Assembly: GCA_000092065.1 (NCBI GenBank)
Contig: CP000590.1
DNA: 64,000 nucleotides
Direction: 5' to 3' (one strand)
Origin: Ostreococcus lucimarinus
Lineage: Eukaryota
Shown here one piece after another: positions 13,010 through 64,000 of the stretch (its first letter is position 1; every line of letters begins with the position of its first letter). The notes beneath the pieces were generated by a model. The model ran no database searches. It was not told where the DNA came from and saw only the letters and a program-made list of their open reading frames with translations. The translations under genes and the position numbers were made by a program.

Positions 13010-14002
13010 TCACGCGCCCGGCGCCGCCGCTGCCGACGTTATGCGAAAGATGACAATTTCTTTGCCTTCGTCTTCGCTGCGTTGCCGATGGAGCGCCTCC
13101 ACCGAGCAACCGGTGCTCTCAAACTCTCGCACGACTTCATTCGTGTGCGGGAAAGCCTTACCGCTCGACGCATCTTCGGTCGAGCTACGGTCGCGCACGC
13201 TTAGGATGAGTTCGCGGACGCCGCTGCGGAGCAACGTCGAGGACGTCGTCACGAATGGAAGCAAAAGCTCTCGCAACCACACGCACTCAGCCGCGATCAA
13301 AATATCGGCGTCTCGAAACGTGAGCGCCGAATTTTGAAACGGATCACTCGGAATTTCATCCATCCAATTTAGCGTCGCGCGCGACGCGCTTCCCGATCCA
13401 ATCCTCGTCGCGTTCGGCCACGCGCCGAGAAGCTCCGTCGCCGGTCCCGCTCCATTCTGTTCGATATTCCTTCGTATCACGTTCTCGCACACCGCGCGCA
13501 CGTCCGTCAAAAGAACGTGCGCACCGAGCGCCGCGCACGCGAGTCCGCATTCCCCCACGCCCGCGCCCAGCTCCAAGACGCGCTCGCCCCTCCCGAGTCC
13601 CGTTCGCTCCAGGTGCGCCGTCAGCGCCTCCGCGCCCTCCCACACCCTCGCGAACCCAGTCGACGCCGCGACGTCGTACCCATCGTCGAAGAAAAACGGA
13701 TCCACCTCCACGTCCTCGTCCTCGTCCCCGTCGTCGTTCGGCTCGACGTCCTTCATCCCGATGCGCAGTTCGTGCACTTTATGCGACTCCGAACCATCCG
13801 CCGCCCGCTCCCGCACGCGCACGCGCTTCGTCCTGTGCCTGTGTCCGCACCCCGCCCACGCGTCTCGCGCGTCCACCGCCGCGCGCGCGGCGTCGCGCGC
13901 CATCGCGTCGCGCCCTGCGGTCGACGCTTCGAGGATTATCCAACCGCGCGAGGTTTTGTCCCGCGCGCGCCGCGCGTCGTCACTCACGCGCGCGCTCGGC
14001 AT
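13010..14002 (-). CDS. Class I SAM-dependent methyltransferase, Methyltransf_16-like (putative protein-lysine methyltransferase)
   Basis: FARVWEGAEALTAHLERTGLGRGERVLELGAGVGECGLACAALGAHVLLTDV (motif I GxGxG plus acidic residue at end of beta2). The start is uncertain: the ORF-track end at 14002 is an alternative start whose ATG shares the CATG tetranucleotide with the ATG of the divergent bioB. Confidence 0.6.
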   Translation of the reverse strand: MPSARVSDDARRARDKTSRGWIILEASTAGRDAMARDAARAAVDARDAWAGCGHRHRTKRVRVRERAADGSESHKVHELRIGMKDVEPNDDGDEDEDVEVDPFFFDDGYDVAASTGFARVWEGAEALTAHLERTGLGRGERVLELGAGVGECGLACAALGAHVLLTDVRAVCENVIRRNIEQNGAGPATELLGAWPNATRIGSGSASRATLNWMDEIPSDPFQNSALTFRDADILIAAECVWLRELLLPFVTTSSTLLRSGVRELILSVRDRSSTEDASSGKAFPHTNEVVREFESTGCSVEALHRQRSEDEGKEIVIFRITSAAAAPGA

Positions 14003-52914: not shown

Positions 52915-54954
52915 ATGTCTCCCGGCGCCGGAGCCGCCGCGCCCGCGCGAACGCCGACCAAGCGTTACGCGCAAGACGGTCTGCTACCCCTGAACCACGC
53001 GCGACCGCCGAAGACGCCGCAAAACGCGGAAGATGGCGCGCGATCCAACACCGCCGCGGACGATCAAAATCTAAAGTCGCCCGCGGATGACGCGACGAAC
53101 GAACCGAGCGTGCGCGACATCGTGCGCGCGAACGCGGAAAGAGCGGGGGCGCGGCTGCGCGCGGAAATGCAGGCGAATGCGCGAAGGGAGGCGGCGAGCT
53201 CGAGCCAGACGCTGGAGGAACAGCACGCGCGGGTGACGGCGTTCTTGGCGACGCACCCACACGCGGGACCGTCATTAGACGCGCACAAGCGCATATATCA
53301 ATTGATAGAGGGATTTCCGACCGTGAAAAAGATGATGGATCGCTCGCCAGGGTTGCGCGGGATGCTCGGGAGCGAACGAGGATTGGCGGAACTGACGCGC
53401 GTGTTGTCCAACGGAGGCGAAGGCTTGGCCGAATTGGCGCAAAGTTTCGGGAGCTTGGATGCGAACGAGAACGGGCACGCGAAGAGTGCGGATGATTACA
53501 TCGCGGATTTAAAGATTCTGGAGCAGGCAAAGATTGAGTTGAGGACGTTTCGCGAGCGACAGGAGAATTACATCACCACCGGTATGGCCGCGCCGGTGGT
53601 GGCGCCGAGCGCCGACGACGACGAGCAGTATTTATTAAGTATCGCGAGACGCGGGACGAACGAAGAAACACCGTCTTATATCGACGTGCATCTTCGCGCA
53701 CAAGCGACGAACATGGATACCGCGGTTCCTTTCGTCATCGCGATTGTAGGCTCGACGCTCGCCGCATTGGGCTTAAATCTATTTTATTTCTTGGTGTCTT
53801 TTGTCACGATCACGGCGTTGATACTCGTGGCGCACCGACATGCGAGTTCGCAAGTGACGTACATGTACGGCAAACGAAGGATAGGTACGTCGGCCGCGAT
53901 GACTGTGCATGCCATAGTGCTCGCGTGTGCGTTGCAGTTTTTCTTTGTGTACGTGCCGTTGTTCTTCGGCGTCGCACCGATGACGTGTTTGATCACTACT
54001 TTTGAGTTTGTTTTCACGCCCTGGTTGTTTTACAAAACATATGTTATCGGTCCGGGCTTCGTGCCCACCGGTGTGAGTGATTTTGCGTCGTGGGCGGCGA
54101 CGATGGAACGCGTGAGCGCGACGCAGGGTGGATCCTCGGTCGCGGAGAACGCATCAAAGATGATGATCAACAACCGATATTGCAAGACTTGTCACTGCGC
54201 CAGGCCGCTGCGGTCGAAGCACTGTCCCTTCTGCAATCGTTGCGTGGAAAAGATGGATCACCACTGCCCGATTACGATGACGTGCATTGGTGCGAGGAAT
54301 CAGCGCTGGTTCTTCATGGCAGTACTCTCGATGTTCATCGGTCAGTGTGGATTTCTGCACGTGAGCCACCTGTTTTACAGGATGCTCGTTGATATCGAAG
54401 CTCCGCGCGTCGGTGGCACTGGATTTATGCCCACAGTCGTGACACATTTTTACGTCGTGTTCAACCGCCCGTTCGGCATGATTTTGTACGCGATTGCTTT
54501 CTTGTTCACGATTTACTGCGCCGGCATCCTCGTACGCATGTTCATCGGCGTCTGCGTGAATCTCACAGTGAACGAGATGGAAAACGCGGCAAGATATGAA
54601 TATCTCCAATCGGGCGATCCTGATCGTCCGTATCGCAACGTCTTCGATGCCGGGCCGCGGATCAATTGCATTCAGTTTTGGCGCGACACCGATAAAAAAC
54701 GCGACTGGGACGGATTTTACGTCGCCGCCAAGGAGAAAAAGGCCGACTTACCCGTGGCGCCAAAATTTAGCTATTCTTGGTTTCACAGCACCGCACCAAG
54801 ATTCTTGCGCGCGGTGTTTCAATTTCACTCCGATACCGTGCGATCGCACGGTCACGGTCACTCGCACGGCCACGGTCACTCGCACGGCCACGGCGACGAA
54901 TGTCAACACGACCATCCGCACTCACTGAACCACCCGGGCGACAGCGCGGTGTGA
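52915..54954 (+). CDS. DHHC-type protein S-acyltransferase with long N-terminal domain and C-terminal (HGHS)n His-rich tail
   Basis: CKTCHCARPLRSKHCPFCNRCVEKMDHHCPITMTCIG (DHHC-CRD). Four or more TM helices. C-terminus HGHGHSHGHGHSHGHGDECQHDHPH. Confidence 0.85.
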   Translation: MSPGAGAAAPARTPTKRYAQDGLLPLNHARPPKTPQNAEDGARSNTAADDQNLKSPADDATNEPSVRDIVRANAERAGARLRAEMQANARREAASSSQTLEEQHARVTAFLATHPHAGPSLDAHKRIYQLIEGFPTVKKMMDRSPGLRGMLGSERGLAELTRVLSNGGEGLAELAQSFGSLDANENGHAKSADDYIADLKILEQAKIELRTFRERQENYITTGMAAPVVAPSADDDEQYLLSIARRGTNEETPSYIDVHLRAQATNMDTAVPFVIAIVGSTLAALGLNLFYFLVSFVTITALILVAHRHASSQVTYMYGKRRIGTSAAMTVHAIVLACALQFFFVYVPLFFGVAPMTCLITTFEFVFTPWLFYKTYVIGPGFVPTGVSDFASWAATMERVSATQGGSSVAENASKMMINNRYCKTCHCARPLRSKHCPFCNRCVEKMDHHCPITMTCIGARNQRWFFMAVLSMFIGQCGFLHVSHLFYRMLVDIEAPRVGGTGFMPTVVTHFYVVFNRPFGMILYAIAFLFTIYCAGILVRMFIGVCVNLTVNEMENAARYEYLQSGDPDRPYRNVFDAGPRINCIQFWRDTDKKRDWDGFYVAAKEKKADLPVAPKFSYSWFHSTAPRFLRAVFQFHSDTVRSHGHGHSHGHGHSHGHGDECQHDHPHSLNHPGDSAV

Positions 54955-55112
54955 GTGCGCCAATAGAAACTGATAGCGGGCATAATAAAAAGAGATTGTG
55001 TAATGACGACCTAATACGTCGCGCACGATTCACTCGATTCACTCGATTCGCTCGATTCCCCGCCGCGCTCTGCTTTGCTGTATCCGCTCGTCTCGTACGC
55101 GCGCGGCCGCAC

Positions 55113-57266
55113 ATGTCGGCTTCGAAACGTCCCGGCGCGCGTCCGCGTGCGCACGCGCGCCTCGACGATCGCACCGCCTTCGCTTACGACCTTGAGGCTG
55201 CCAATTACGACGACGACGCGAGTAAGTACGGCAAACGTCGTCGTTCCAGTCGCCATGGATTTGCCAACTGTAATCAGTTTTTGAACACTCTGCGCGCGCT
55301 ATTCGCGCCCACGAGTCGCGTCAACGTCGCACGTTTATGCTGCGCGATCGCAGTGACTGTATTGCTCGCGCAAGTGGCGTCGAAATCGTCGGAGACGGCG
55401 TCGCCGACGCGCGTGGGTACGGAATTAGATTTGGGTTTGCTGCAGGTTGAACCTCCAAAGGGACGCCGAGGCGAAGCCTTGGCGCCGAGCGCGACGAAAC
55501 GATACGCGAAGAGCGCGGATGATTTGCGACGAACGAACGGAGGGTACAGTAGTGGTGCTCCGCGGAACAGGGCGAAGCTGATCCCGCGAATCGTGCATCA
55601 GACGTTCAAGTCGCGCGGGACGCTCACGGAGAAGGACAAGGCGATGATGCAGACGTGGCGAGCGCAGAATCCAGAGTGGGAGATACGGTTCTACGACGAC
55701 GAGGACTGCACGCGGTTCGTGCAGGAGCATTTTCCGGATTATTACGATGCGTATGCGGCGTTGGTGAAGAAGGTAGAACGGAGCGATTTCTTTCGGTATT
55801 TGGTGATTTTGAAGCACGGCGGCGTGTACGCGGACATCGACACTGAGTGTCGAAAGCCTTTGGATGATATGATCGATGCGAAGGACACACTGATCGTCGG
55901 CTGGGAGAACGAGTTCGAATCAGACGCAAAGGCGTACTCGAGACACTTCGTGCGAAGACGACAAGTGTTGAATTGGGCGTTCGCGGGCGCGCCAGGGCAT
56001 CCCGCGCTCCTCGCCGTCGCCGAACACATCAACGCTGGTGCGAAGCGAGTGTTCACCAAGGCTTCGAATCGTAACACGCTAGAGCGTACGGGACCGGGTG
56101 CGTTTACTGATACCATCATGTCGCACTTTGAAGGGCTTCGTACGGGTGGGAAGACGTTTTGGAACGTTCGAGTGTTGCCGAAAGTCGTGCTCGGCACGCA
56201 TCCGCTCGGCGAGGAGGGCGTGAGCCAAAAACACCCAGACGTCGTCATCGCGCACAGATACTCGGGTGGGTGGAAGAAAAAAACTGGCTGGAATGGGAAG
56301 AGGCGCTGGTATGACCACATCGCGATTCTCTGGCACTCGATCATGAGCGATCTTCCGGCGTACCGCGAGAAGCTTGCGGCGCGAGACGAGCACTTTCAAA
56401 TGCCCTTGGTCGATCCGAAGAGGGAGTACCCGGTGACAGCGCTCTGGGAGCCCGCGTTCGATCTCATGACGCCATTGGTTGGCACGATGGAGGAAAACGA
56501 CGCGTCATCAAAAAGCGAGCATCGCAGCGCGGAAGGGTACTGGTTGACACTGTACGGTAGACCGAAAGTGGTGACGCACAGCCCTCTGCGCGCCGGGCAA
56601 AATCCGGCGGAAATCCTTTTTGCCGGTTTGGAGCGACACGCAGGGAAACACATTCCTGAGCGCGCCGTCTTTATTGATATTGGTGCCGGTTTAGGGTATT
56701 ATTCCAACGCAGCCGCATCCCACGGGGACGACGTGTACTCGTACGAGTGGGATGAGACGTTATTAGCAAACTTTAAGACGTCAGTTGAGTACAACAACTT
56801 TGGCGACCATGTGAAAATCAGCGCGGATTTGGGCGAATTGAAGAGCGGCGAGGCGTTTAGGGATATGCTTCTCAAGACGAAAAAGATAGACGCCATGCGT
56901 ATCGCAGGTCGAGGGTATGAGATGGACATTTTAGACGGTTTCAAGATGTTTGTGGCGGCGGGTGATTTTCCTATGGCGTTACTTTTGGAGATGCGCCCGG
57001 CGCTCATTGAGGCGTCAACAAAGCATTCGACCGAGGACATCATCGCCATGTTTCAGTACTTGTGGAGCAATGGCTACACTGATATTGGGCACGTGGGTCC
57101 GGCGTGTGATGGGCGGGGCGTGCGCAAAATCAAGACAAAAGGGCTTAAAAGTCAGTTTGAGAACACGGCGTGGTGCAGAATCGACATTGCGAGCGTCAAA
57201 GGCGTCCTCAGCGCCATGAGCGAGGATGAGTTTGAAACCATCATCATGTTCTCAGATAGACATTGA
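55113..57266 (+). CDS. Type-II membrane glycosyltransferase (GT32 / Och1-like, Gly_transf_sug) fused to a C-terminal FkbM-family methyltransferase domain
   Basis: Signal-anchor VARLCCAIAVTVLLAQVA. GT32 core IPRIVHQTFKS...WEIRFYDDEDC...RSDFFRYLVILKHGGVYADIDTEC (DxD-like). C-terminal half VFIDIGAGLGYYSNAAASHGDDVYSYEWDE...MRIAGRGYEMDILDG resembles Methyltransf_21/FkbM. The ORF-track start at 54777 overlaps the DHHC gene, so the Met at 55113 is preferred. Confidence 0.7.
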   Translation: MSASKRPGARPRAHARLDDRTAFAYDLEAANYDDDASKYGKRRRSSRHGFANCNQFLNTLRALFAPTSRVNVARLCCAIAVTVLLAQVASKSSETASPTRVGTELDLGLLQVEPPKGRRGEALAPSATKRYAKSADDLRRTNGGYSSGAPRNRAKLIPRIVHQTFKSRGTLTEKDKAMMQTWRAQNPEWEIRFYDDEDCTRFVQEHFPDYYDAYAALVKKVERSDFFRYLVILKHGGVYADIDTECRKPLDDMIDAKDTLIVGWENEFESDAKAYSRHFVRRRQVLNWAFAGAPGHPALLAVAEHINAGAKRVFTKASNRNTLERTGPGAFTDTIMSHFEGLRTGGKTFWNVRVLPKVVLGTHPLGEEGVSQKHPDVVIAHRYSGGWKKKTGWNGKRRWYDHIAILWHSIMSDLPAYREKLAARDEHFQMPLVDPKREYPVTALWEPAFDLMTPLVGTMEENDASSKSEHRSAEGYWLTLYGRPKVVTHSPLRAGQNPAEILFAGLERHAGKHIPERAVFIDIGAGLGYYSNAAASHGDDVYSYEWDETLLANFKTSVEYNNFGDHVKISADLGELKSGEAFRDMLLKTKKIDAMRIAGRGYEMDILDGFKMFVAAGDFPMALLLEMRPALIEASTKHSTEDIIAMFQYLWSNGYTDIGHVGPACDGRGVRKIKTKGLKSQFENTAWCRIDIASVKGVLSAMSEDEFETIIMFSDRH

Positions 57267-57271
57267 ATCGT

Positions 57272-58063
57272 TTATTTATTTATTCGCGTTGGACTATTGA
57301 GATAAGTCGTGCGCGCCTTCGCCGCGCGTCGTTTGAAACTCACCTCACGGCGTTCGGCGTCCTCCATCGCGCGTCGCCGCCCCTCCTCCGCGCGCGCGTC
57401 CGCTTTAAGTCTGCGCGATCTTGCGAGTTCTATCTCGTTTCGACGCTGCTTTCTGACCTTGTTTTCGACTACCACCTTGTGTGGCGCGATCGGAAGTGCG
57501 ACGATCGCGTCGGACATCTTCTCTGGGGGGCGCAGCGTTCGTGCGGCTTCGCGAAGTTGATCGTCGGCGACCAGGCGCAACGTCTGATACACCTCTTCCT
57601 CCCACGAGCGTCCTCGCCGACGTGCACAATCGAACGTGCGCGCGCACTCTGACTTGACGTGTGCGCACGTCGCATCGCGATCGTCCGAACACTCGCTCTC
57701 AATGCGCGCGAAGACGATGGCTTTGAGCGTCAACGTCGCGAGCCCACTCGCTGGCGCGCAGTCGAGCTCGACGAATCCTCGCAACAAGCGAAACAATCCA
57801 CCGCGAGCGAGGCGCGCGACACTCGGGGCTGGATCGCGACACACGCGCGCGCATACTCTGATGACGTCTCGAACGACAGTTTCGTCGTCACCCGCGACCG
57901 TTGCAGACGCTACGCACGCGCACGCCGCCTCGAGAGCCGCGGTCAACGCCGCGAGGCGAACAGCGATGGGTCCGTCAAGGTAGCGCGTCGCACTTTGCAC
58001 GCGCTCCGCCAACGACGCATCACATTTGTCAATTCCTGTAATCGCTAAGATGGCACCATGCAT
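57272..58063 (-). CDS. Hypothetical protein with basic coiled-coil C-terminus
   Basis: Biased codons. C-terminal KVVVENKVRKQRRNEIELARSRRLKADARAEEGRRRAMEDAERRE. Its stop lies only 6 bp from the stop of the convergent GT32 gene. Family not recognised. Confidence 0.4.
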   Translation of the reverse strand: MHGAILAITGIDKCDASLAERVQSATRYLDGPIAVRLAALTAALEAACACVASATVAGDDETVVRDVIRVCARVCRDPAPSVARLARGGLFRLLRGFVELDCAPASGLATLTLKAIVFARIESECSDDRDATCAHVKSECARTFDCARRRGRSWEEEVYQTLRLVADDQLREAARTLRPPEKMSDAIVALPIAPHKVVVENKVRKQRRNEIELARSRRLKADARAEEGRRRAMEDAERREVSFKRRAAKARTTYLNSPTRINK

Positions 58064-58165
58064 ACGAAGACGCGCGGACGCGTCGCGTTGTGCCGCACAA
58101 CTAAATCTTCACACCGCTGCGTTTATTTTTACATGCGTCGTCGTCGTCTCAATCGTCTATCCATG

Positions 58166-58924
58166 TCATTCGTTCCTGATATCGCTCAGGATGTTTTCGA
58201 TATCATCCTTCGTAACGACGCCATCGGCGCCCTTTTGCGCAGCCAAACCGGACAGTCTCTGCATGAGCTTATCCTTGAACCCGGCGAACGCGCTCGCCAT
58301 GTTCATCTGCTGATTCATCGGAAGCGTGGCGAACGCCGCCATCGAGGCGTTTTCCAAACTCTCTCCACTCGCCGCATCGAGCGCACCTTGCGCCTCCAAT
58401 ATCTCCCGCATCGTCGTCGGTACGTCCGCGCCGCACCCATCGCCCTCGCACTCGTCGTCATCGTCATCGTCGTCGCCCTCGCGTCGCCAACGAAACACCC
58501 CGTCCTCGTCGGCGTGCGTCAGCTCGCGCGCCTCTCCGCTCAGAAACGACACCTTCCGCAATTCCGCCTCGAACCCATCCCGCGCGTCGTACAACAACGC
58601 GAACGCCGTCCCCGCCTTCGCCTCCCCCTCCGCGTCCCCTTCGCACACGACGCACGGCCACCACGTCACCGCGACTTCGGTTTCGTCCTCGTCTCGCGCC
58701 TCGCCGTCCTCGCCCCCCTCCCCCCGTCCCGGTTCCACCTCCCACTGCACCTCCAACCGATCGCCCGCGCGCACGCGCCTCCCGAACCGATCCACCGCCA
58801 CCTCGACCGCCGCGCGTCCGTCGCTCGCCGCGTCGTCCGCCCTCGCGCGCTTCACCGCCGCCCCGTCGTCCCTCGTCGCGTCTTCGCCATCCTCGCGTTC
58901 GCGTCGCACCGTCGCGCTCGACAT
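58166..58924 (-). CDS. Hypothetical acidic nuclear-type protein (possible Tudor/Agenet-like barrel)
   Basis: RFGRRVRAGDRLEVQWEVEPG...VAVTWWPCVVCEGD...AFALLYDARDGFEAELRKVSFL beta-rich segment. Poly-Asp run. Conserved-looking C-terminus ...KDDIENILSDIRNE. Unassigned. Confidence 0.4.
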   Translation of the reverse strand: MSSATVRREREDGEDATRDDGAAVKRARADDAASDGRAAVEVAVDRFGRRVRAGDRLEVQWEVEPGRGEGGEDGEARDEDETEVAVTWWPCVVCEGDAEGEAKAGTAFALLYDARDGFEAELRKVSFLSGEARELTHADEDGVFRWRREGDDDDDDDECEGDGCGADVPTTMREILEAQGALDAASGESLENASMAAFATLPMNQQMNMASAFAGFKDKLMQRLSGLAAQKGADGVVTKDDIENILSDIRNE

Positions 58925-59172
58925 CCTCGCGCGGTCCTATCGCTCGCGCGTCGCGCTTCGGTCGTCGCGTCCGTCCGCGTCGCCGTCGCCGTCGTCGCGC
59001 GTCCGCGTGTCGCGCCGCGCGCGCCGCGCAACCATCCGTCGCGTCGTTCGAATCGCGTTTTGAAATTTGAATTCAAACCGTCGGTGCGAATGCGAAAAAA
59101 ACGCGATACGAACCGTCGCACCCCTATTTTTTTAGGGTCGCGCGAAACGACGCTTCGCGACGCTTTGCCGCT

Positions 59173-60192
59173 TTGCCGCGCGTCGACCGCGACGCGCGAC
59201 ACACGACGACGACGACGACGATGATGACGACGACGACGACGACGACGACGCTGACGACGCTGACGACGGCGACGCGAGGGACGGCGCGACGCGCGACGCG
59301 AACGGTCGCGCGCGTCGCGCGACCGACTTTCGCGAGGGCGACCGCGGTCGGCGGGGCGTCGCGGACGCGAACGACGCGCGCGCGACGGGGCGGCGCGGTG
59401 GTGACGCGCGCGGACGCGCTGGCGCCGCCGGCGGTGTTCGACGCGGCGTGCGCGGCGAGCGAGAAGAAGAGCGCGCAGGCGCCGACGACGACGCTGACGC
59501 TGGGGTTCGCGGCGGGGGCGTTGATTGGCTTGGGCGCGCTGCTCATGACGTGCGTGGGGGGGGCGTCGCCGGCGTTGGCGGCGAATAATCCCGGGTTGAG
59601 CGCGTTCGTGAAAGGCGCGATCGGGCTCCCGGCGGGGCTGACGATGGTGATTCTGACGGGCGCGGAGCTGTTCACGGGGAACGTCTTCGTGATGCTGAGC
59701 GGGGCGCTGAACGGCGTCGCGAACGAGCGTCAAGTGGCGCGGTCGTGGGCGCTTTCGTACGCTGGGAACTTTGCGGGCTCGGTGTTCATGGCGTACATGG
59801 CGTACACGGCGATGACGGCGGCGTCGCCGGCGGCGAGCGCGGCGGCGGTGGGGATCGCCACGGCGAAGGCGTCGCTGCCGTTTGTCGCGGCGTTCACCAA
59901 GGGCGTGTTGTGCAACTGGCTCGTGTGTCTCGCTGTTTGGGGAACGATGGCGACGACGTCGGTGGCGGGGAAGATTTTGGCGATCTTTTGGCCCATCACC
60001 ATGTTCGTCGCGCTCGGTTTCGAGCACAGCGTGGCGAACATGTTTTTGATTCCGCACGGGATGCTCCTCGGCGCAAACGTTTCGTGGGCGCAGATGATGA
60101 CGGGCAACATCATTCCGGTGACGCTAGGGAACATCGTCGGCGCCGCAGTCTTCGTCGCGGGCGTGCACTGGCTCGCGTACGGTAAGAAGTGA
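59173..60192 (+). CDS. NAR1: Formate/nitrite transporter (FNT) family, NAR1-type putative chloroplast nitrite channel
   Basis: FNT signature regions LTMVILTGAELFTGNVFVM and LCNWLVCLAVWG...GFEHSVANMF. Six TM helices. N-terminal transit-peptide-like region including a poly-Thr tract encoded by an (ACG)n repeat at about 59203-59262. Confidence 0.85.
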   Translation: MPRVDRDARHTTTTTTMMTTTTTTTTLTTLTTATRGTARRATRTVARVARPTFARATAVGGASRTRTTRARRGGAVVTRADALAPPAVFDAACAASEKKSAQAPTTTLTLGFAAGALIGLGALLMTCVGGASPALAANNPGLSAFVKGAIGLPAGLTMVILTGAELFTGNVFVMLSGALNGVANERQVARSWALSYAGNFAGSVFMAYMAYTAMTAASPAASAAAVGIATAKASLPFVAAFTKGVLCNWLVCLAVWGTMATTSVAGKILAIFWPITMFVALGFEHSVANMFLIPHGMLLGANVSWAQMMTGNIIPVTLGNIVGAAVFVAGVHWLAYGKK

Positions 60193-60285
60193 AAGATATT
60201 TTGATCGTTCGATTCGATTCGCAAGTAACCCCTGGTGTAATTAATTTCAACGACGACGATTTCTATGACTGTACGAGGCGCTCTT

Positions 60286-63189
60286 CTAATAGCGGATGAT
60301 GGCGTCTTCGGGATAACCGAGCGCTTTCAGCGCTGGAATGCACGTGTCTTCCTCGAACGCAGGTGGCCCACACATCACGGCGATGTGCGACGAACCGTTG
60401 GACGGGAAGCCGTGTTGTTGGATGATGGGCAAACTTATGCGCCCGTACGTGACGCGATCCGAGCTCCACTCCGGGCCAGTCTTCCTGTCCGCCGCCCACG
60501 TCTCCTTGGAAATCATGTAGTGCACTTTAAACCGCCCCTTATGCTCGCGCTCGAGACGATCGAGGGTATACTTCAATAGCACATCGTCTTCCGTTTTGTT
60601 GGCGTAAATGAAGGAAAGTTCCGTTTCGTCCTTCTCGTCCGCGAGAACGGCGACGATGAGTTGCAACATCGGCGCGACGCCCGTGCCGCCGCCCAAGAGC
60701 GTCATCTTCTTCACCGGCGGCAAGTCTTTTTTGTCGATGCTAAACAATCCCTGACCGAGATACTTGATGTGACCAACTGGGCCTTTGACGTCAATCTTGT
60801 CACCCTCGTTGAGATGGTGAAGGTATTGTGTCAACGCCCCGCCCTCGGGGTACGCTTCGTGGACGTCGGAATAATAAATCTTAATCACCAGTTCCACAGC
60901 CCCAAGGGTGCCGTTGAGCGAGGAAGGCGTGTACGCGCGCATCACCTTCTTGCCATTCCACTCGCCTCGTAAATATACATGATAACCCACGGGCATACCA
61001 CACTGATGCTCGTCGCTTTCGAGCTTCAAACGCAAAAGAATGGAATCGTGCGACAGCGGAATTTTGTTTTCAATCTTGAGCTGTAACCATTTCTTCGGGT
61101 TCAGCCCGAGTGGAGCGTTTTCGGGCACGATATGCTTTGCACCCGCCCACATGCGATCGAAAGCCGCCGCTTCCGCGGCTTCACCGAGTAACATCTGGCC
61201 GAACGCCTCCTTGTGTTCTTCGTAAAACTTGACGAGATGCACCGGGCCACGTTTGGGCATCGCCGGGAACTCACGCCTGGGCTCGGTTTCGACTCGCTCA
61301 ATTTCGACCGACACATCACTTGAAGCCGCCTGATCTTCCGCACTTCCGACGTCGCCGATATAAAAAGGTTCGAGCTGCTTCCAAGCCTTGGCGCTGTGCA
61401 CGGCTTCGAAATCCTCCGTGGTGTCTTCGCCCGCATTCATGGTAATACTCGCATTACCTCCCGGATGCAGACCTTCCTTCAAGTACGCGTTGACGTCATA
61501 CACCTTACCTTTAACGACAATCCAGCAGTCGTCTTCAGTGTTGTGTTTCTCCACCTCCTCCATGGTGATGTATCTGACATTTTTCTTCGGCGCGGCGGCG
61601 ACGACGGGCGCTTCGTCGGCGGCGTCATTCTTCTGCGAAACTTCTACTTTCTCCGTGTTTACGATCGTCACTTGCACTTCTGAGGCACTCGCACCCACAT
61701 GCCGTTCTTCACCCGCTCGCGCGGCTTCGAGCGCTTCGATCACTGGCTTCCATCCGCCGGCTTCGTTACCCATCCAGCCACCCTTGAGCGCGCCCGGCTC
61801 CGTCGGATGTTCGCATCGAATGTACTTTTGTGCTCTATCGCTCAGCGCCGCGACCGACAGCTTCACGCGGAAGTAGCAATTATTGCCCATACCCATGAGA
61901 TTCCACGTAAAATCTCGCGGCTGCGTGTTGTTCGCTTCGTCCCACGCCCGACACATCACCTCCTTGGCGCTCGCGAGTTCGACGGTGGCGACGTCCAAAT
62001 CCCAAAAGATCCAGCACCAGTGCTTGCCGTACATCGTCGGTGCGAATGGACGACGAATGTTGGCCAATCTCCAGGTGTAACCACCGTCAAGGCTCACCTC
62101 AACGCGCGTGATCGCGCGTCCTCCGCCCGTGTACGCGTACCCTTTCACTTCGTACCGCTCGCGGTCGAGCGGCACGCACTCGTCGTGCGCGGGCGACGCG
62201 ATGGCGCTGTTGATGTTGAGCTCGTTGAAAATGTACTCCGGCTTCTCCCACCAGTTTTGCTTATCCGCCATCGCCGCGTCCACGCCTGGAGGCATGATGC
62301 GGTTATCGCGGAAATGATAAAAGTTGTCGCTCGGATGCTCCGTGACGCGAATCGTCGTGAGGTACTTGATCATTCTGCCGCCGATGTAGCCGGGGATGAT
62401 CAAGCGCACGGGAAACCCGTGATCGGGTCGAAGTGCCTCACCGTTTTGCGCGTAACACACCATGACATCTTGCGCCGGGTCGAGCGCCTTGCTCAAGGGA
62501 ATGCTCGTTCCGTACGTTCCATCCTTACCCTTCGGCAGCTCCCCCTTCGGTCCCTCAAAGCACACAAAGCGTCGCTTCGCCGTCACCTCGGTCACCCCGC
62601 ACTCGGCGAGCAAAATCCGCAGCGGCACCCCGGTCCAGAGCGAGTTCGACAATCCAGCCGCGCCCCATCCGAATCCAATCGTCTTTTCATACATATTCTG
62701 CTCCTTTCTCCGATTTCCCGCGCACACGAGCAAGCACGGCATCGTCATCGCCGGCTTGCGCAACAACGCGTCCATCCCGTACGTCCTCCCCTTGCCCGAG
62801 TCGCTCACCTCCACCCTCACCTCGTGCGCGTCCCACGCGATGTTCTGCGCCGCCCCGTGATTCCTGACGAAGTGCAGCTCCGCCGGCGTCACGCTCCCCG
62901 CCTCCATCAGCGCTCGCAGCGGAGGCTCGCAGTTGAACGGGTGCGTCCCCGTCAGGCGCACCAGGCTCGGGTGTCTCGCCACCCAGTGATCGGGCGTGTT
63001 CAGGTCGCGTCCGTCCGCGCGCGCGCCCTCCGCTTTGGCCCTCGTCAGCGCGCCGCGATGTCCATCGCACGCCAGCAGCGCGCGCTGCACGTCGACGTCG
63101 TCCATCGGCAGCGCGCGCGGTCCCGCGCGCGCGCATCGCCCGTCCTCGTTTCCCTTGACGCGCGCGCCGCGCGCGCCGAACGCGCCCAT
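60286..63189 (-). CDS. NIA: Assimilatory nitrate reductase [NAD(P)H] (Mo-cofactor, cytochrome b5 heme and FAD/NAD(P)H domains)
   Basis: Moco/dimerisation domain (HFVRNHGAAQ...CAGNRRKE...). Cyt b5 heme domain (DDCWIVVKGKVYDVNAYLKEGLHPGGNASITMNAGEDTTEDFEAVHS). Ferredoxin-reductase-type FAD/NADH domain (RAYTPSS, GGTGVAP, CGPP) at the C-terminus. About 967 aa. Confidence 0.93.
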   Translation of the reverse strand: MGAFGARGARVKGNEDGRCARAGPRALPMDDVDVQRALLACDGHRGALTRAKAEGARADGRDLNTPDHWVARHPSLVRLTGTHPFNCEPPLRALMEAGSVTPAELHFVRNHGAAQNIAWDAHEVRVEVSDSGKGRTYGMDALLRKPAMTMPCLLVCAGNRRKEQNMYEKTIGFGWGAAGLSNSLWTGVPLRILLAECGVTEVTAKRRFVCFEGPKGELPKGKDGTYGTSIPLSKALDPAQDVMVCYAQNGEALRPDHGFPVRLIIPGYIGGRMIKYLTTIRVTEHPSDNFYHFRDNRIMPPGVDAAMADKQNWWEKPEYIFNELNINSAIASPAHDECVPLDRERYEVKGYAYTGGGRAITRVEVSLDGGYTWRLANIRRPFAPTMYGKHWCWIFWDLDVATVELASAKEVMCRAWDEANNTQPRDFTWNLMGMGNNCYFRVKLSVAALSDRAQKYIRCEHPTEPGALKGGWMGNEAGGWKPVIEALEAARAGEERHVGASASEVQVTIVNTEKVEVSQKNDAADEAPVVAAAPKKNVRYITMEEVEKHNTEDDCWIVVKGKVYDVNAYLKEGLHPGGNASITMNAGEDTTEDFEAVHSAKAWKQLEPFYIGDVGSAEDQAASSDVSVEIERVETEPRREFPAMPKRGPVHLVKFYEEHKEAFGQMLLGEAAEAAAFDRMWAGAKHIVPENAPLGLNPKKWLQLKIENKIPLSHDSILLRLKLESDEHQCGMPVGYHVYLRGEWNGKKVMRAYTPSSLNGTLGAVELVIKIYYSDVHEAYPEGGALTQYLHHLNEGDKIDVKGPVGHIKYLGQGLFSIDKKDLPPVKKMTLLGGGTGVAPMLQLIVAVLADEKDETELSFIYANKTEDDVLLKYTLDRLEREHKGRFKVHYMISKETWAADRKTGPEWSSDRVTYGRISLPIIQQHGFPSNGSSHIAVMCGPPAFEEDTCIPALKALGYPEDAIIRY

Positions 63190-63780
63190 CGCGACTCGCG
63201 CGCGACGCTCGACGCCTCGAAACGCTCGACGCTCGACGCGCGTCCTCGCGCGTCGTCCGTCGTCGTCGCGTCGCGTCGGAATCTGCCGCCGCGCGCGTCG
63301 TCGCGTCGTCGACTCGACGTCGTCGACGTCCCGCCGCGCCGGTTCGACTCCGCCGACGTCGCGACGTCGCGGTCGGCGCGACCCCGACGCGCGCGCGCCG
63401 ACCCGACGGCGCGATCGCGCGAGTCACGATTCGTCGCGCGCGTCGTTTTTTTTTTTCTCGCCGGCGTCGCGTCCCGCCGCGCCGCGCGATCGGTCGACGC
63501 CCCGGCGACGGGTCGCGCGACAAAGCGTCGCGAAGCGTCGCGACCGCCGACGCTTCGCGTCGCTTTGACCTCGTATGGGCAAACAGTCACACGCGTGTGT
63601 CGACCGCGCGTCCGACGCGCGTCGGCGCCGCACACCGCGACGCTCGGTCGCGAGCGCGCGCGCGTCGACCTCCGGACGCGAGCGAACGCGCTCGAGCGCG
63701 CGGCGCGTCGAGCGACGCGAGGGCGCGTCGAGCGACGCGAGGACGCGGCGCGAGGGATCGCGGGACGACGACGACGACGA

Positions 63781-64000
63781 TGGACGCGGCGCGAGGGACG
63801 GCGACGACGGCGACGACGGTGAGGCGCGCGGTGCGGGCGCGCGGAGGACGCGCGGTGCGCGAGACGCGCGGCGCGCGGGCGCGGGACGCGCGACGAGGGA
63901 CGCCGCGGGCGGTGGTGGAGCCGGAGGGGGCGTCGGCGGGCGACGCGTCGGCGTCGGCGTCGGCGGGCGACGCGTTGAAGTGGCAGGCCGAGGACGCGGC
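63781..64000 (+). CDS. Possible 5' end of a further gene divergent from nitrate reductase (runs off window end)
   Basis: An ATG at 63781 opens a frame with no stop before the window end: MDAARGTATTATTVRRAVRARGGRAVRETRGARARDARRGTPRAVVEPEGASAGDASASASAGDALKWQAEDA. It looks like a transit peptide, but the region is GC-rich low complexity, so confidence is low. Confidence 0.2.

Follow-up and report, generated by a model that had tools for sequence, protein, structure and literature searches.

Nitrate assimilation in Ostreococcus lucimarinus: the nuclear gene cluster at its NAR1 end

When the gene of a formate/nitrite transporter (FNT) channel lies tail to tail with that of the assimilatory nitrate reductase, is the channel part of the nitrate-assimilation pathway, and what does it carry? 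The question is raised by the final part of a 64,000-nucleotide stretch of Ostreococcus lucimarinus DNA (contig CP000590.1 of assembly GCA_000092065.1), here called the window. Its last 4.8 kb hold the FNT gene NAR1, the nitrate reductase gene NIA and the start of the nitrite reductase gene NII, the first two and a bit genes of a cluster. We conclude that this is, very probably, the NAR1 end of the known nuclear nitrate-assimilation cluster of O. lucimarinus CCE9901 or a near-identical strain, serving the pathway proposed below. The Ostreococcus nitrate cluster is a textbook eukaryotic metabolic gene cluster; it has been in the literature since 2006, and the locus offers nothing new at the level of the cluster. 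The sole candidate for novelty is a sequence module shared by its promoters. That module, which recalls the nitrate-responsive element (NRE) of plants, and the substrate of the single FNT are the only parts worth an experiment.

Genes, order and extent of the cluster

NAR1 is identified by its match to PF01226 (E=3e-72, 243.3 bits where the cut-off is 34.6, covering positions 2-240 of the 240-position profile). The open reading frame (ORF) called by program spans 59173-60192 on the plus strand and opens at a TTG at 59173; the real start is the ATG at 59221, from which the 323-residue product is identical to XP_001419919.1 of O. lucimarinus CCE9901. NIA encodes the five domains of an assimilatory nitrate reductase in canonical order (Oxidored_molyb, Mo-co_dimer, Cyt-b5, FAD_binding_6 and NAD_binding_1; residues 111-950, E 5.8e-49 to 1.9e-18), and the stop codons of the two genes face each other. 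The first-pass annotation was thus right that they converge, while the gap between them, given there as 94 bp, measures 93 bp. The same annotation had placed an ORF at 63781, divergent from NIA, as a possible further cluster member. The ORF is real, its ATG lies at 63780, and a contig identical to this part of the window establishes it as the N terminus of NII.

That contig, L001, is a 12.6-kb Logan contig carrying the exact nitrate reductase protein and was used to extend the window. Its reverse complement equals window positions 59228-64000 at 100% identity over 4,773 bp and runs on for 7.8 kb. On it NII is complete (L001 5045-8020) as one uninterrupted ORF of 991 aa with the same starting residues as the ORF in the window. 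The product is a fusion of NiR, rubredoxin-like, FAD_binding_6 and NAD_binding_1 domains, and it matches the NCBIfam ferredoxin-nitrite reductase model with 617 bits against a cut-off of 594. Beyond NII follow NAR2 on the minus strand, NRT2 on the plus strand and MOT1 on the minus strand, the MOT1 protein being identical to the RefSeq protein of O. lucimarinus CCE9901. Four metagenome contigs about 99.5% identical to L001 (L002-L005) supply CNX2, with radical SAM and Mob_synth_C domains, and CNX5, with ThiF and rhodanese domains. Window and contigs together give the order NAR1 > < NIA, NII > < NAR2, NRT2 > < MOT1, CNX2, CNX5, which bears out the physical cluster that the annotation had surmised. 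Spacing within it is very short: genes stand head to head or tail to tail, with 93 bp between the convergent NAR1 and NIA and a divergent promoter of 590 bp.

This order matches that published for O. tauri, NAR1-NIA1-NII1-Cytb5R-NAR2-NRT2-MOT1-CNX2-CNX5 (Derelle et al. 2006 as quoted in PMC4620153), and O. lucimarinus has already been tabulated with one gene each of NAR1, nitrate reductase and nitrite reductase (PMC4620153; PMC2944026). The finding is therefore correct but already known; the first-pass annotation did not recognise the locus as the published Ostreococcus cluster.

Extension of the contig in both directions, which the annotation had proposed, yields further cluster genes past 64000 and unrelated genes, mostly of housekeeping type, before 59173. 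Nitrogen-assimilation genes were looked for in the 59 kb before the FNT gene and none was found. The genes there encode a DHHC palmitoyltransferase, a glycosyltransferase, a V-ATPase subunit, PAP2, a WD40 protein, MCU, an MFS transporter, an FAD monooxygenase, an aminotransferase, a kinesin, a kinase, a Y-family polymerase, a DNA ligase, a Vps4-like AAA ATPase, a biotin synthase-like protein and an M1 peptidase. Since nothing before 59173 is related to nitrogen assimilation, NAR1 forms the boundary of the cluster, which extends only past 64000.

Loci of the O. tauri assembly (L006/L010) and of two further Ostreococcus lineages (L007, L008) were compared with the window. In all three, the order DHHC, glycosyltransferase, two unknowns, NAR1 >, < NIA, NII >, < NAR2 is retained, the FNT proteins are 80-83% identical to that of the window by BLASTP (O. 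tauri about 83%), and the convergent NAR1/NIA gap is 123, 79 or 39 bp long. In Micromonas commoda and M. pusilla the FNT gene adjoins NIA and/or NII in clusters that are otherwise rearranged, in agreement with McDonald et al. 2010 (PMC2944026). The adjacency of NAR1 and NIA is not due to chance, because the same order recurs in O. tauri and the two further Ostreococcus lineages and NAR1 stands beside NIA or NII in both Micromonas species.

Table 1. Features of the locus, in window coordinates
Feature	Position	Strand	Basis or remark
Four genes directly upstream of NAR1	52915-58924		DHHC palmitoyltransferase, DXD glycosyltransferase with long C-terminal extension, two proteins without Pfam match
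Two GACGCTT half-sites 10 bp apart (GACGCTTCGCGACGCTT), candidate shared cis-element	59149..59165	+	56-72 bp upstream of NAR1 ATG
8-bp tandem duplication (CGCTTTGC x2.4) in NAR1 5' region	59161..59179	+	TRF
(ACG)n microsatellite across NAR1 start codon	59203..59274	+	TRF: period 3, 24 copies, 82% matches
NAR1, FNT-family channel, 323 aa	59221..60192	+	PF01226; RefSeq-identical
NAR1/NIA convergent gap, 93 bp, AT-richer	60193..60285	.	FNT stop TGA ends 60192; nitrate reductase stop (CTA on +) begins 60286
NIA, assimilatory NAD(P)H nitrate reductase, 967 aa, single exon	60286..63189	-	Five Pfam domains
NIA/NII divergent intergenic region, presumed bidirectional promoter	63190..63779	.	Gene coordinates
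Inverted repeat in NIA/NII region	63521..63567	.	Two AAGCGTC facing NIA, 7-nt spacer, then GACGCTT and GTCGCTT facing NII
Conserved non-coding block	63525..63642	.	Holds motif pair, AAACAGTCA, GTCGACC, GCGCCGCACACCGCGACGC
NII, first 73 codons of nitrite reductase	63780..64000	+	ATG 63780; runs past window end

In the pathway that these genes would make up, we infer the substrate of the channel, its targeting to the plastid and the co-regulation of the cluster. Nitrate would be taken up by NRT2 together with NAR2, as the roles of their families suggest, and reduced to nitrite by cytosolic NIA, whose molybdenum cofactor would be supplied through MOT1, CNX2 and CNX5. A presequence rich in Thr, Arg and Ala would carry NAR1 to the plastid envelope, nitrite would pass into the plastid through the NAR1 channel, and the NII fusion protein would there reduce it to ammonium. 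Among the papers listed by a literature search there was no nitrogen-response transcriptome study of Ostreococcus.

Residues 1-64 of NAR1 form an extension relative to bacterial FNTs and contain 13 R, 22 T and 12 A with no D, E or K. By composition this presequence fits a plastid transit peptide, and Micromonas NAR1 has been predicted to be plastid-targeted (PMC2944026). The poly-Thr tract encoded by (ACG)n, which the annotation had pointed out, belongs to a TRF array in which six ACG units precede the ATG and eight follow straight after ATG ATG, encoding MMTTTTTTTTLTTLTT, the poly-Thr start of the presequence. Natural populations similar to O. lucimarinus differ in the 8-bp unit next to this tract and in the tract itself, both in its length and in its sequence, with variants such as MMTTTTTTTTTTLTT and MTTTTTTTTTTTLTT. 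Some metagenomic FNT calls of 363-364 aa begin at an upstream ATG; their variants (P0002, P0009 and P0011) have a single copy of the 8-bp unit and read through it in frame. Such a start was rejected for the window, where the 8-bp duplication shifts the frame and the RefSeq model starts at 59221. Because the duplication puts the N-terminal extension out of frame, the stretch 59161-59179 is non-coding.

At the other end of NAR1, both 3' untranslated regions and their poly(A) sites must fit into the 93-bp gap, in which no terminator-like hairpin was found; the window gave no match to Rfam.

Several observations concern the models of neighbouring cluster genes. The GenBank model of O. lucimarinus NII is a partial protein of 633 aa, and a GACGACGACGACGACG run resembling the (ACG)n of NAR1 directly precedes the NII start codon (63765-63779). 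NRT2 (L001 3470-3661 and 1842-3275; L002 ~13221-13412) has an apparent short first exon (MAITKEFNVPVDR) followed by an intron of about 200 bp, an arrangement kept in a second Ostreococcus lineage, L011, and, with different sequence, in O. tauri; the automatic call of 477 aa begins at an internal Met and is N-terminally truncated. NAR2 was called as two adjacent ORFs (L001 3923-4258 and 4368-4775), one of 111 aa resembling a signal peptide and one of 135 aa with the NAR2 domain, which are probably one gene with an intron. Directly past CNX5, about 15-18 kb beyond the window end (L002 3372-6039), lie a small cytochrome-b5 gene and a gene for a sulfite-oxidase-like molybdoenzyme (Oxidored_molyb and Mo-co_dimer), two more Mo/haem redox genes that are missing from the quoted cluster list.

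A candidate promoter module

The half-sites upstream of NAR1 recur in the NIA/NII region as an inverted pair, AAGCGTCGCGAAGCGTC at 63523-63539 and GACGCTTCGCGTCGCTT at 63549-63565. A repeat search gives this structure 20-nt arms with 95% complementarity, and TRF reports AAGCGTCGCG in 2.1 copies. The 18-mer AAGCGTCGCGAAGCGTCG occurs three times in the window against 0.12 expected, only upstream of NAR1 and between NIA and NII, and the repeat search recovered the match between these two regions independently (24 nt, 96%). Tandem half-sites at 10-bp spacing occur nowhere else in the 64 kb, and the window's other intergenic DNA, about 6.7 kb, holds only about two half-sites. The copies facing NAR1, NIA and NII share a near-identical 24-nt core, and in each GTCGACC lies 25-45 bp further on, at about 59182, about 63599 and, on the minus strand, about 63492.

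Related sequences are found beyond the window. The NAR2/NRT2 intergenic region (L002 13476-13660) contains GACGCTT sites and a pseudo-palindrome, TGACCCTT-N7-AAGCGTCA, which sits beside a TATA-like stretch and GTCGACC and reads TGACTCTT-N7-AAACGTCG in a second lineage. A related site directly precedes CNX2 (L002 ~8448). In each of the loci of about 15 kb from O. tauri, L007 and L008, the sole exact match to the 12-mer CGCGAAGCGTCG lies upstream of NAR1 or between NIA and NII, and binomial tests of half-site placement gave p values of 2e-5 to 6e-2, with L008 marginal (p = 0.02-0.06). When the NIA/NII region was aligned to that of L011, the non-coding block at 63525-63642 was 77-90% identical against 40-70% in nearly all other 30-nt bins, the exception being one further bin, 63385-63413, which reached 80%.

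Within the block, AAACAGTCA (GGCAAACAGTCA in two of the three sequences) occurs once each in the window (63581-63589), at L011 14327 between NIA and NII, and at L015 5052 between NRT2 and NAR2 of M. pusilla, and nowhere else in those O. lucimarinus, L011 and M. pusilla sequences. This could mark a second conserved promoter element or be due to chance.

Could the GACGCTT repeats instead be CG-rich low-complexity or microsatellite sequence of the kind typical of Ostreococcus intergenic DNA, with no regulatory role? We put the chances of this at about even. The 5.1 kb around the locus hold 44 overlapping low-complexity arrays by TRF, the motif was defined post hoc and its enrichment measured against a background of mostly coding sequence, no enrichment was found in M. 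commoda, and L008 is marginal as noted. An unbiased comparison of k-mers with the whole window returned mostly generic CG-rich intergenic k-mers, AAGCGTCG ranking only fifth to sixth, so that the enrichment statistics are to be read cautiously. A search of JGI metagenome contigs with AAGCGWCGCGAAGCGWCG returned at least 120 stretches, and none of the matches listed is the window or an Ostreococcus locus, an uninformative outcome. Low complexity alone, however, sits poorly with a near-identical 24-nt core in three copies that each face a direction of transcription, with an exact 12-mer confined to the same two promoters in three other Ostreococcus loci, with a footprint of 77-90% identity amid mostly 40-70%, and with the scarcity of half-sites in the other intergenic DNA.

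Our regulatory proposal, which is tentative and on balance doubtful, is that the cluster promoters share a module of GAC(G/C)CTT half-sites, usually two and one helical turn apart, with GTCGAC(C) 25-45 bp on, one copy of the module facing each of NAR1, NIA, NII, NAR2 and NRT2 and a related site lying before CNX2, and that this module is a candidate binding site for an NLP-like RWP-RK factor. Five RWP-RK genes, one of them an NLP, are reported for O. lucimarinus (PMC11291829). In M. pusilla CCMP1545 a gene with the RWP-RK and PB1 domains of NLP architecture lies within the nitrate cluster itself (L015 13482-15390), divergent from CNX2; none was seen in the Ostreococcus stretches examined. No published description of an Ostreococcus nitrate-cluster promoter module was found.

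If the proposal holds, the NLP-NRE nitrate switch of land plants would be older than the divergence between prasinophytes and the remaining green lineage, and would explain why the cluster stays together. Ostreococcus is transformable and supports homologous recombination. The module offers a concrete, mutable target for the co-regulation of a eukaryotic metabolic cluster, and a test of it would also address whether the ancestor of green plants already had NLP-type nitrate signalling.

Nitrite or bicarbonate as the substrate of NAR1

Among all PDB sequences, the best match of NAR1 is Chlamydomonas LCIA/NAR1.2 (9v2a; 196 bits, residues 59-321), well ahead of Vibrio FocA (131), Clostridioides HSC (114), Salmonella NirC (101), E. 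coli FocA (96) and Plasmodium FNT (69 bits). The NCBIfam equivalogs score 171 for FocA (cut-off 290) and 114 for NirC (cut-off 293), and neither cut-off is reached. These cut-offs and the PDB scores rule out an identity as FocA, NirC or HSC. The protein belongs to the green-algal NAR1 family by sequence, closer to algal NAR1/LCIA than to the bacterial channels; the annotation's assignment of the FNT to the NAR1 type is borne out, its substrate apart, and the FNT does not group with the formate or HS- channels that the annotation had named as the alternative. The O. tauri orthologue carries the name 'Nar, plastid nitrite transporter'. Both the conserved pore Thr (ELFT(G/S)) and the central His ((F/L)EH(S/C)(V/I)ANM) are present, in the pore motifs GAELFTGN and GFEHSVANMF, which line up with their counterparts in LCIA, VcFocA and HSC. 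From 41% identity to the solved LCIA pentamer, a pentameric channel of six-helix subunits is predicted for NAR1; a literature search found no published paper on the LCIA structure.

A neighbour-joining tree unites the FNTs of Ostreococcus, Micromonas, Mantoniella and Chloropicon in one clade (99% bootstrap); its deep nodes are poorly supported. This prasinophyte clade lies outside three volvocine groups, namely that of LCIA/NAR1.2, that containing the Chlamydomonas 'nitrite transporter' and that of a Volvox africanus paralogue encoded next to NII. NAR1 is about 38-43% identical to the volvocine NAR1 proteins compared, among which Chlamydomonas NAR1.1 was not identified with certainty. Since NAR1 falls outside the volvocine groups sampled, the label 'NAR1-type' does not settle its substrate.

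The V. africanus paralogue, P0257 (L013 3259-13209), belongs to a group different both from that of LCIA and from that of the Chlamydomonas 'nitrite transporter' XP_001694067. An FNT from a UniRef transcript labelled as the dinoflagellate Zooxanthella nutricula (P0140) is 61% identical to the NAR1 of the window and groups with Mamiellales (65% bootstrap) inside the 99%-supported prasinophyte clade, a placement that suggests transcriptome contamination or transfer.

Two points weigh against nitrite as the substrate. The clade of NAR1, although itself supported at 99%, stands outside every volvocine NAR1 group sampled, at nodes that are weak; and Ostreococcus has a single FNT whose closest solved relative, LCIA, is described as a bicarbonate transporter, so that NAR1 could carry bicarbonate besides or instead of nitrite. 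Against this one FNT stand six NAR1 genes in Chlamydomonas, among them that of NAR1.2, a bicarbonate transporter induced by low CO2 (PMC4620153). On these grounds, NAR1 might be primarily a plastid bicarbonate channel of a carbon-concentrating mechanism, like LCIA, or might carry both nitrite and bicarbonate; its position among the nitrate genes would then stem from ancestry and not from a role dedicated to nitrite. We regard this as rather unlikely. The best solved-structure match and the gene count speak for it, as does a tree in which NAR1 is outside all volvocine paralogue groups sampled, with 38-43% identity to each; yet four Ostreococcus lineages and two Micromonas species show linkage of the FNT gene to NIA and NII, the NAR1 promoter motif is common to NIA/NII and found nowhere else in the 64 kb, and the FNT that lies beside NII in V. 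africanus is a paralogue other than LCIA.

Sequence comparison cannot by itself separate nitrite from bicarbonate transport. Membership in the cluster favours nitrite as the substrate of NAR1, which, being the single copy, may have a dual role. Chlamydomonas divides nitrite and bicarbonate import between NAR1.1 and LCIA. The single FNT of Mamiellophyceae lends itself to testing whether both imports run through one channel.

Linkage and likeness to known systems

That FNT and nitrate reductase genes adjoin incidentally in a very compact genome, without functional meaning, is highly improbable. In its favour, the whole window is densely packed with genes, most of the neighbours have unrelated functions, and the DHHC, glycosyltransferase and two unknown genes upstream are as syntenic across Ostreococcus as the cluster; but nine consecutive genes of one pathway sit together and their linkage is kept across genera although their order is rearranged (also PMC4620153). 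The four upstream genes hold their order in all four Ostreococcus lineages, and since such unrelated genes are equally syntenic, synteny alone is no mark of cluster membership.

The closest known system is the chromosome-10 cluster of O. tauri, seen directly in L006/L010, which has the same genes in the same order and orientation. The 2015 review of that cluster, as far as its gene list goes, has a separate 'Cytb5R' after NII1, whereas NII of O. lucimarinus is one uninterrupted ORF that includes the reductase domain. The same architecture of NiR, rubredoxin and FAD/NAD(P)H reductase domains is described for NIRFU of M. commoda, whose C-terminal domains have been suggested to feed electrons to the enzyme; O. 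lucimarinus is not among the species listed in that paper (PMC5344333).

For the channel, one known parallel is the plastid nitrite transporter NAR1.1 of Chlamydomonas reinhardtii, an FNT whose plastid presequence would be matched by the transit-peptide-like N terminus of the Ostreococcus protein and whose gene adjoins a nitrate reductase gene, NIA1 (Rexach et al. 2000, as cited in PMC2944026). LCIA/NAR1.2 shares the ELFTGN and EHSVANMF pore motifs with the Ostreococcus protein; it is induced by low CO2, has been described as transporting bicarbonate, and is not part of the nitrate cluster (PMC4620153). Bacterial FocA, NirC and HSC belong to the same Pfam family and have the central His and Thr at the same positions, but are without a presequence and give weaker matches (96-131 bits).

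The promoter module can be set beside the plant NRE, which is bound by NLP/RWP-RK factors and is given as (t/c)GACcCTT-N10-AAG(a/g) in PMC4091066, quoting Konishi and Yanagisawa. The half-site CGACGCTT of the NAR1 and NIA/NII promoters matches this 8-bp distal element at seven of eight positions, and the perfect distal element, TGACCCTT, is confined to the NAR2/NRT2 promoter past the window end, where it faces NRT2. The spacer of that palindrome is 7, against 10 in the NRE, so its spacing departs from that of the plant element. In the NAR1 and NIA/NII promoters the sites repeat directly every 10 bp, or form an inverted pair, AAG...CTT, whose polarity is opposite to the CTT-N10-AAG of the NRE.

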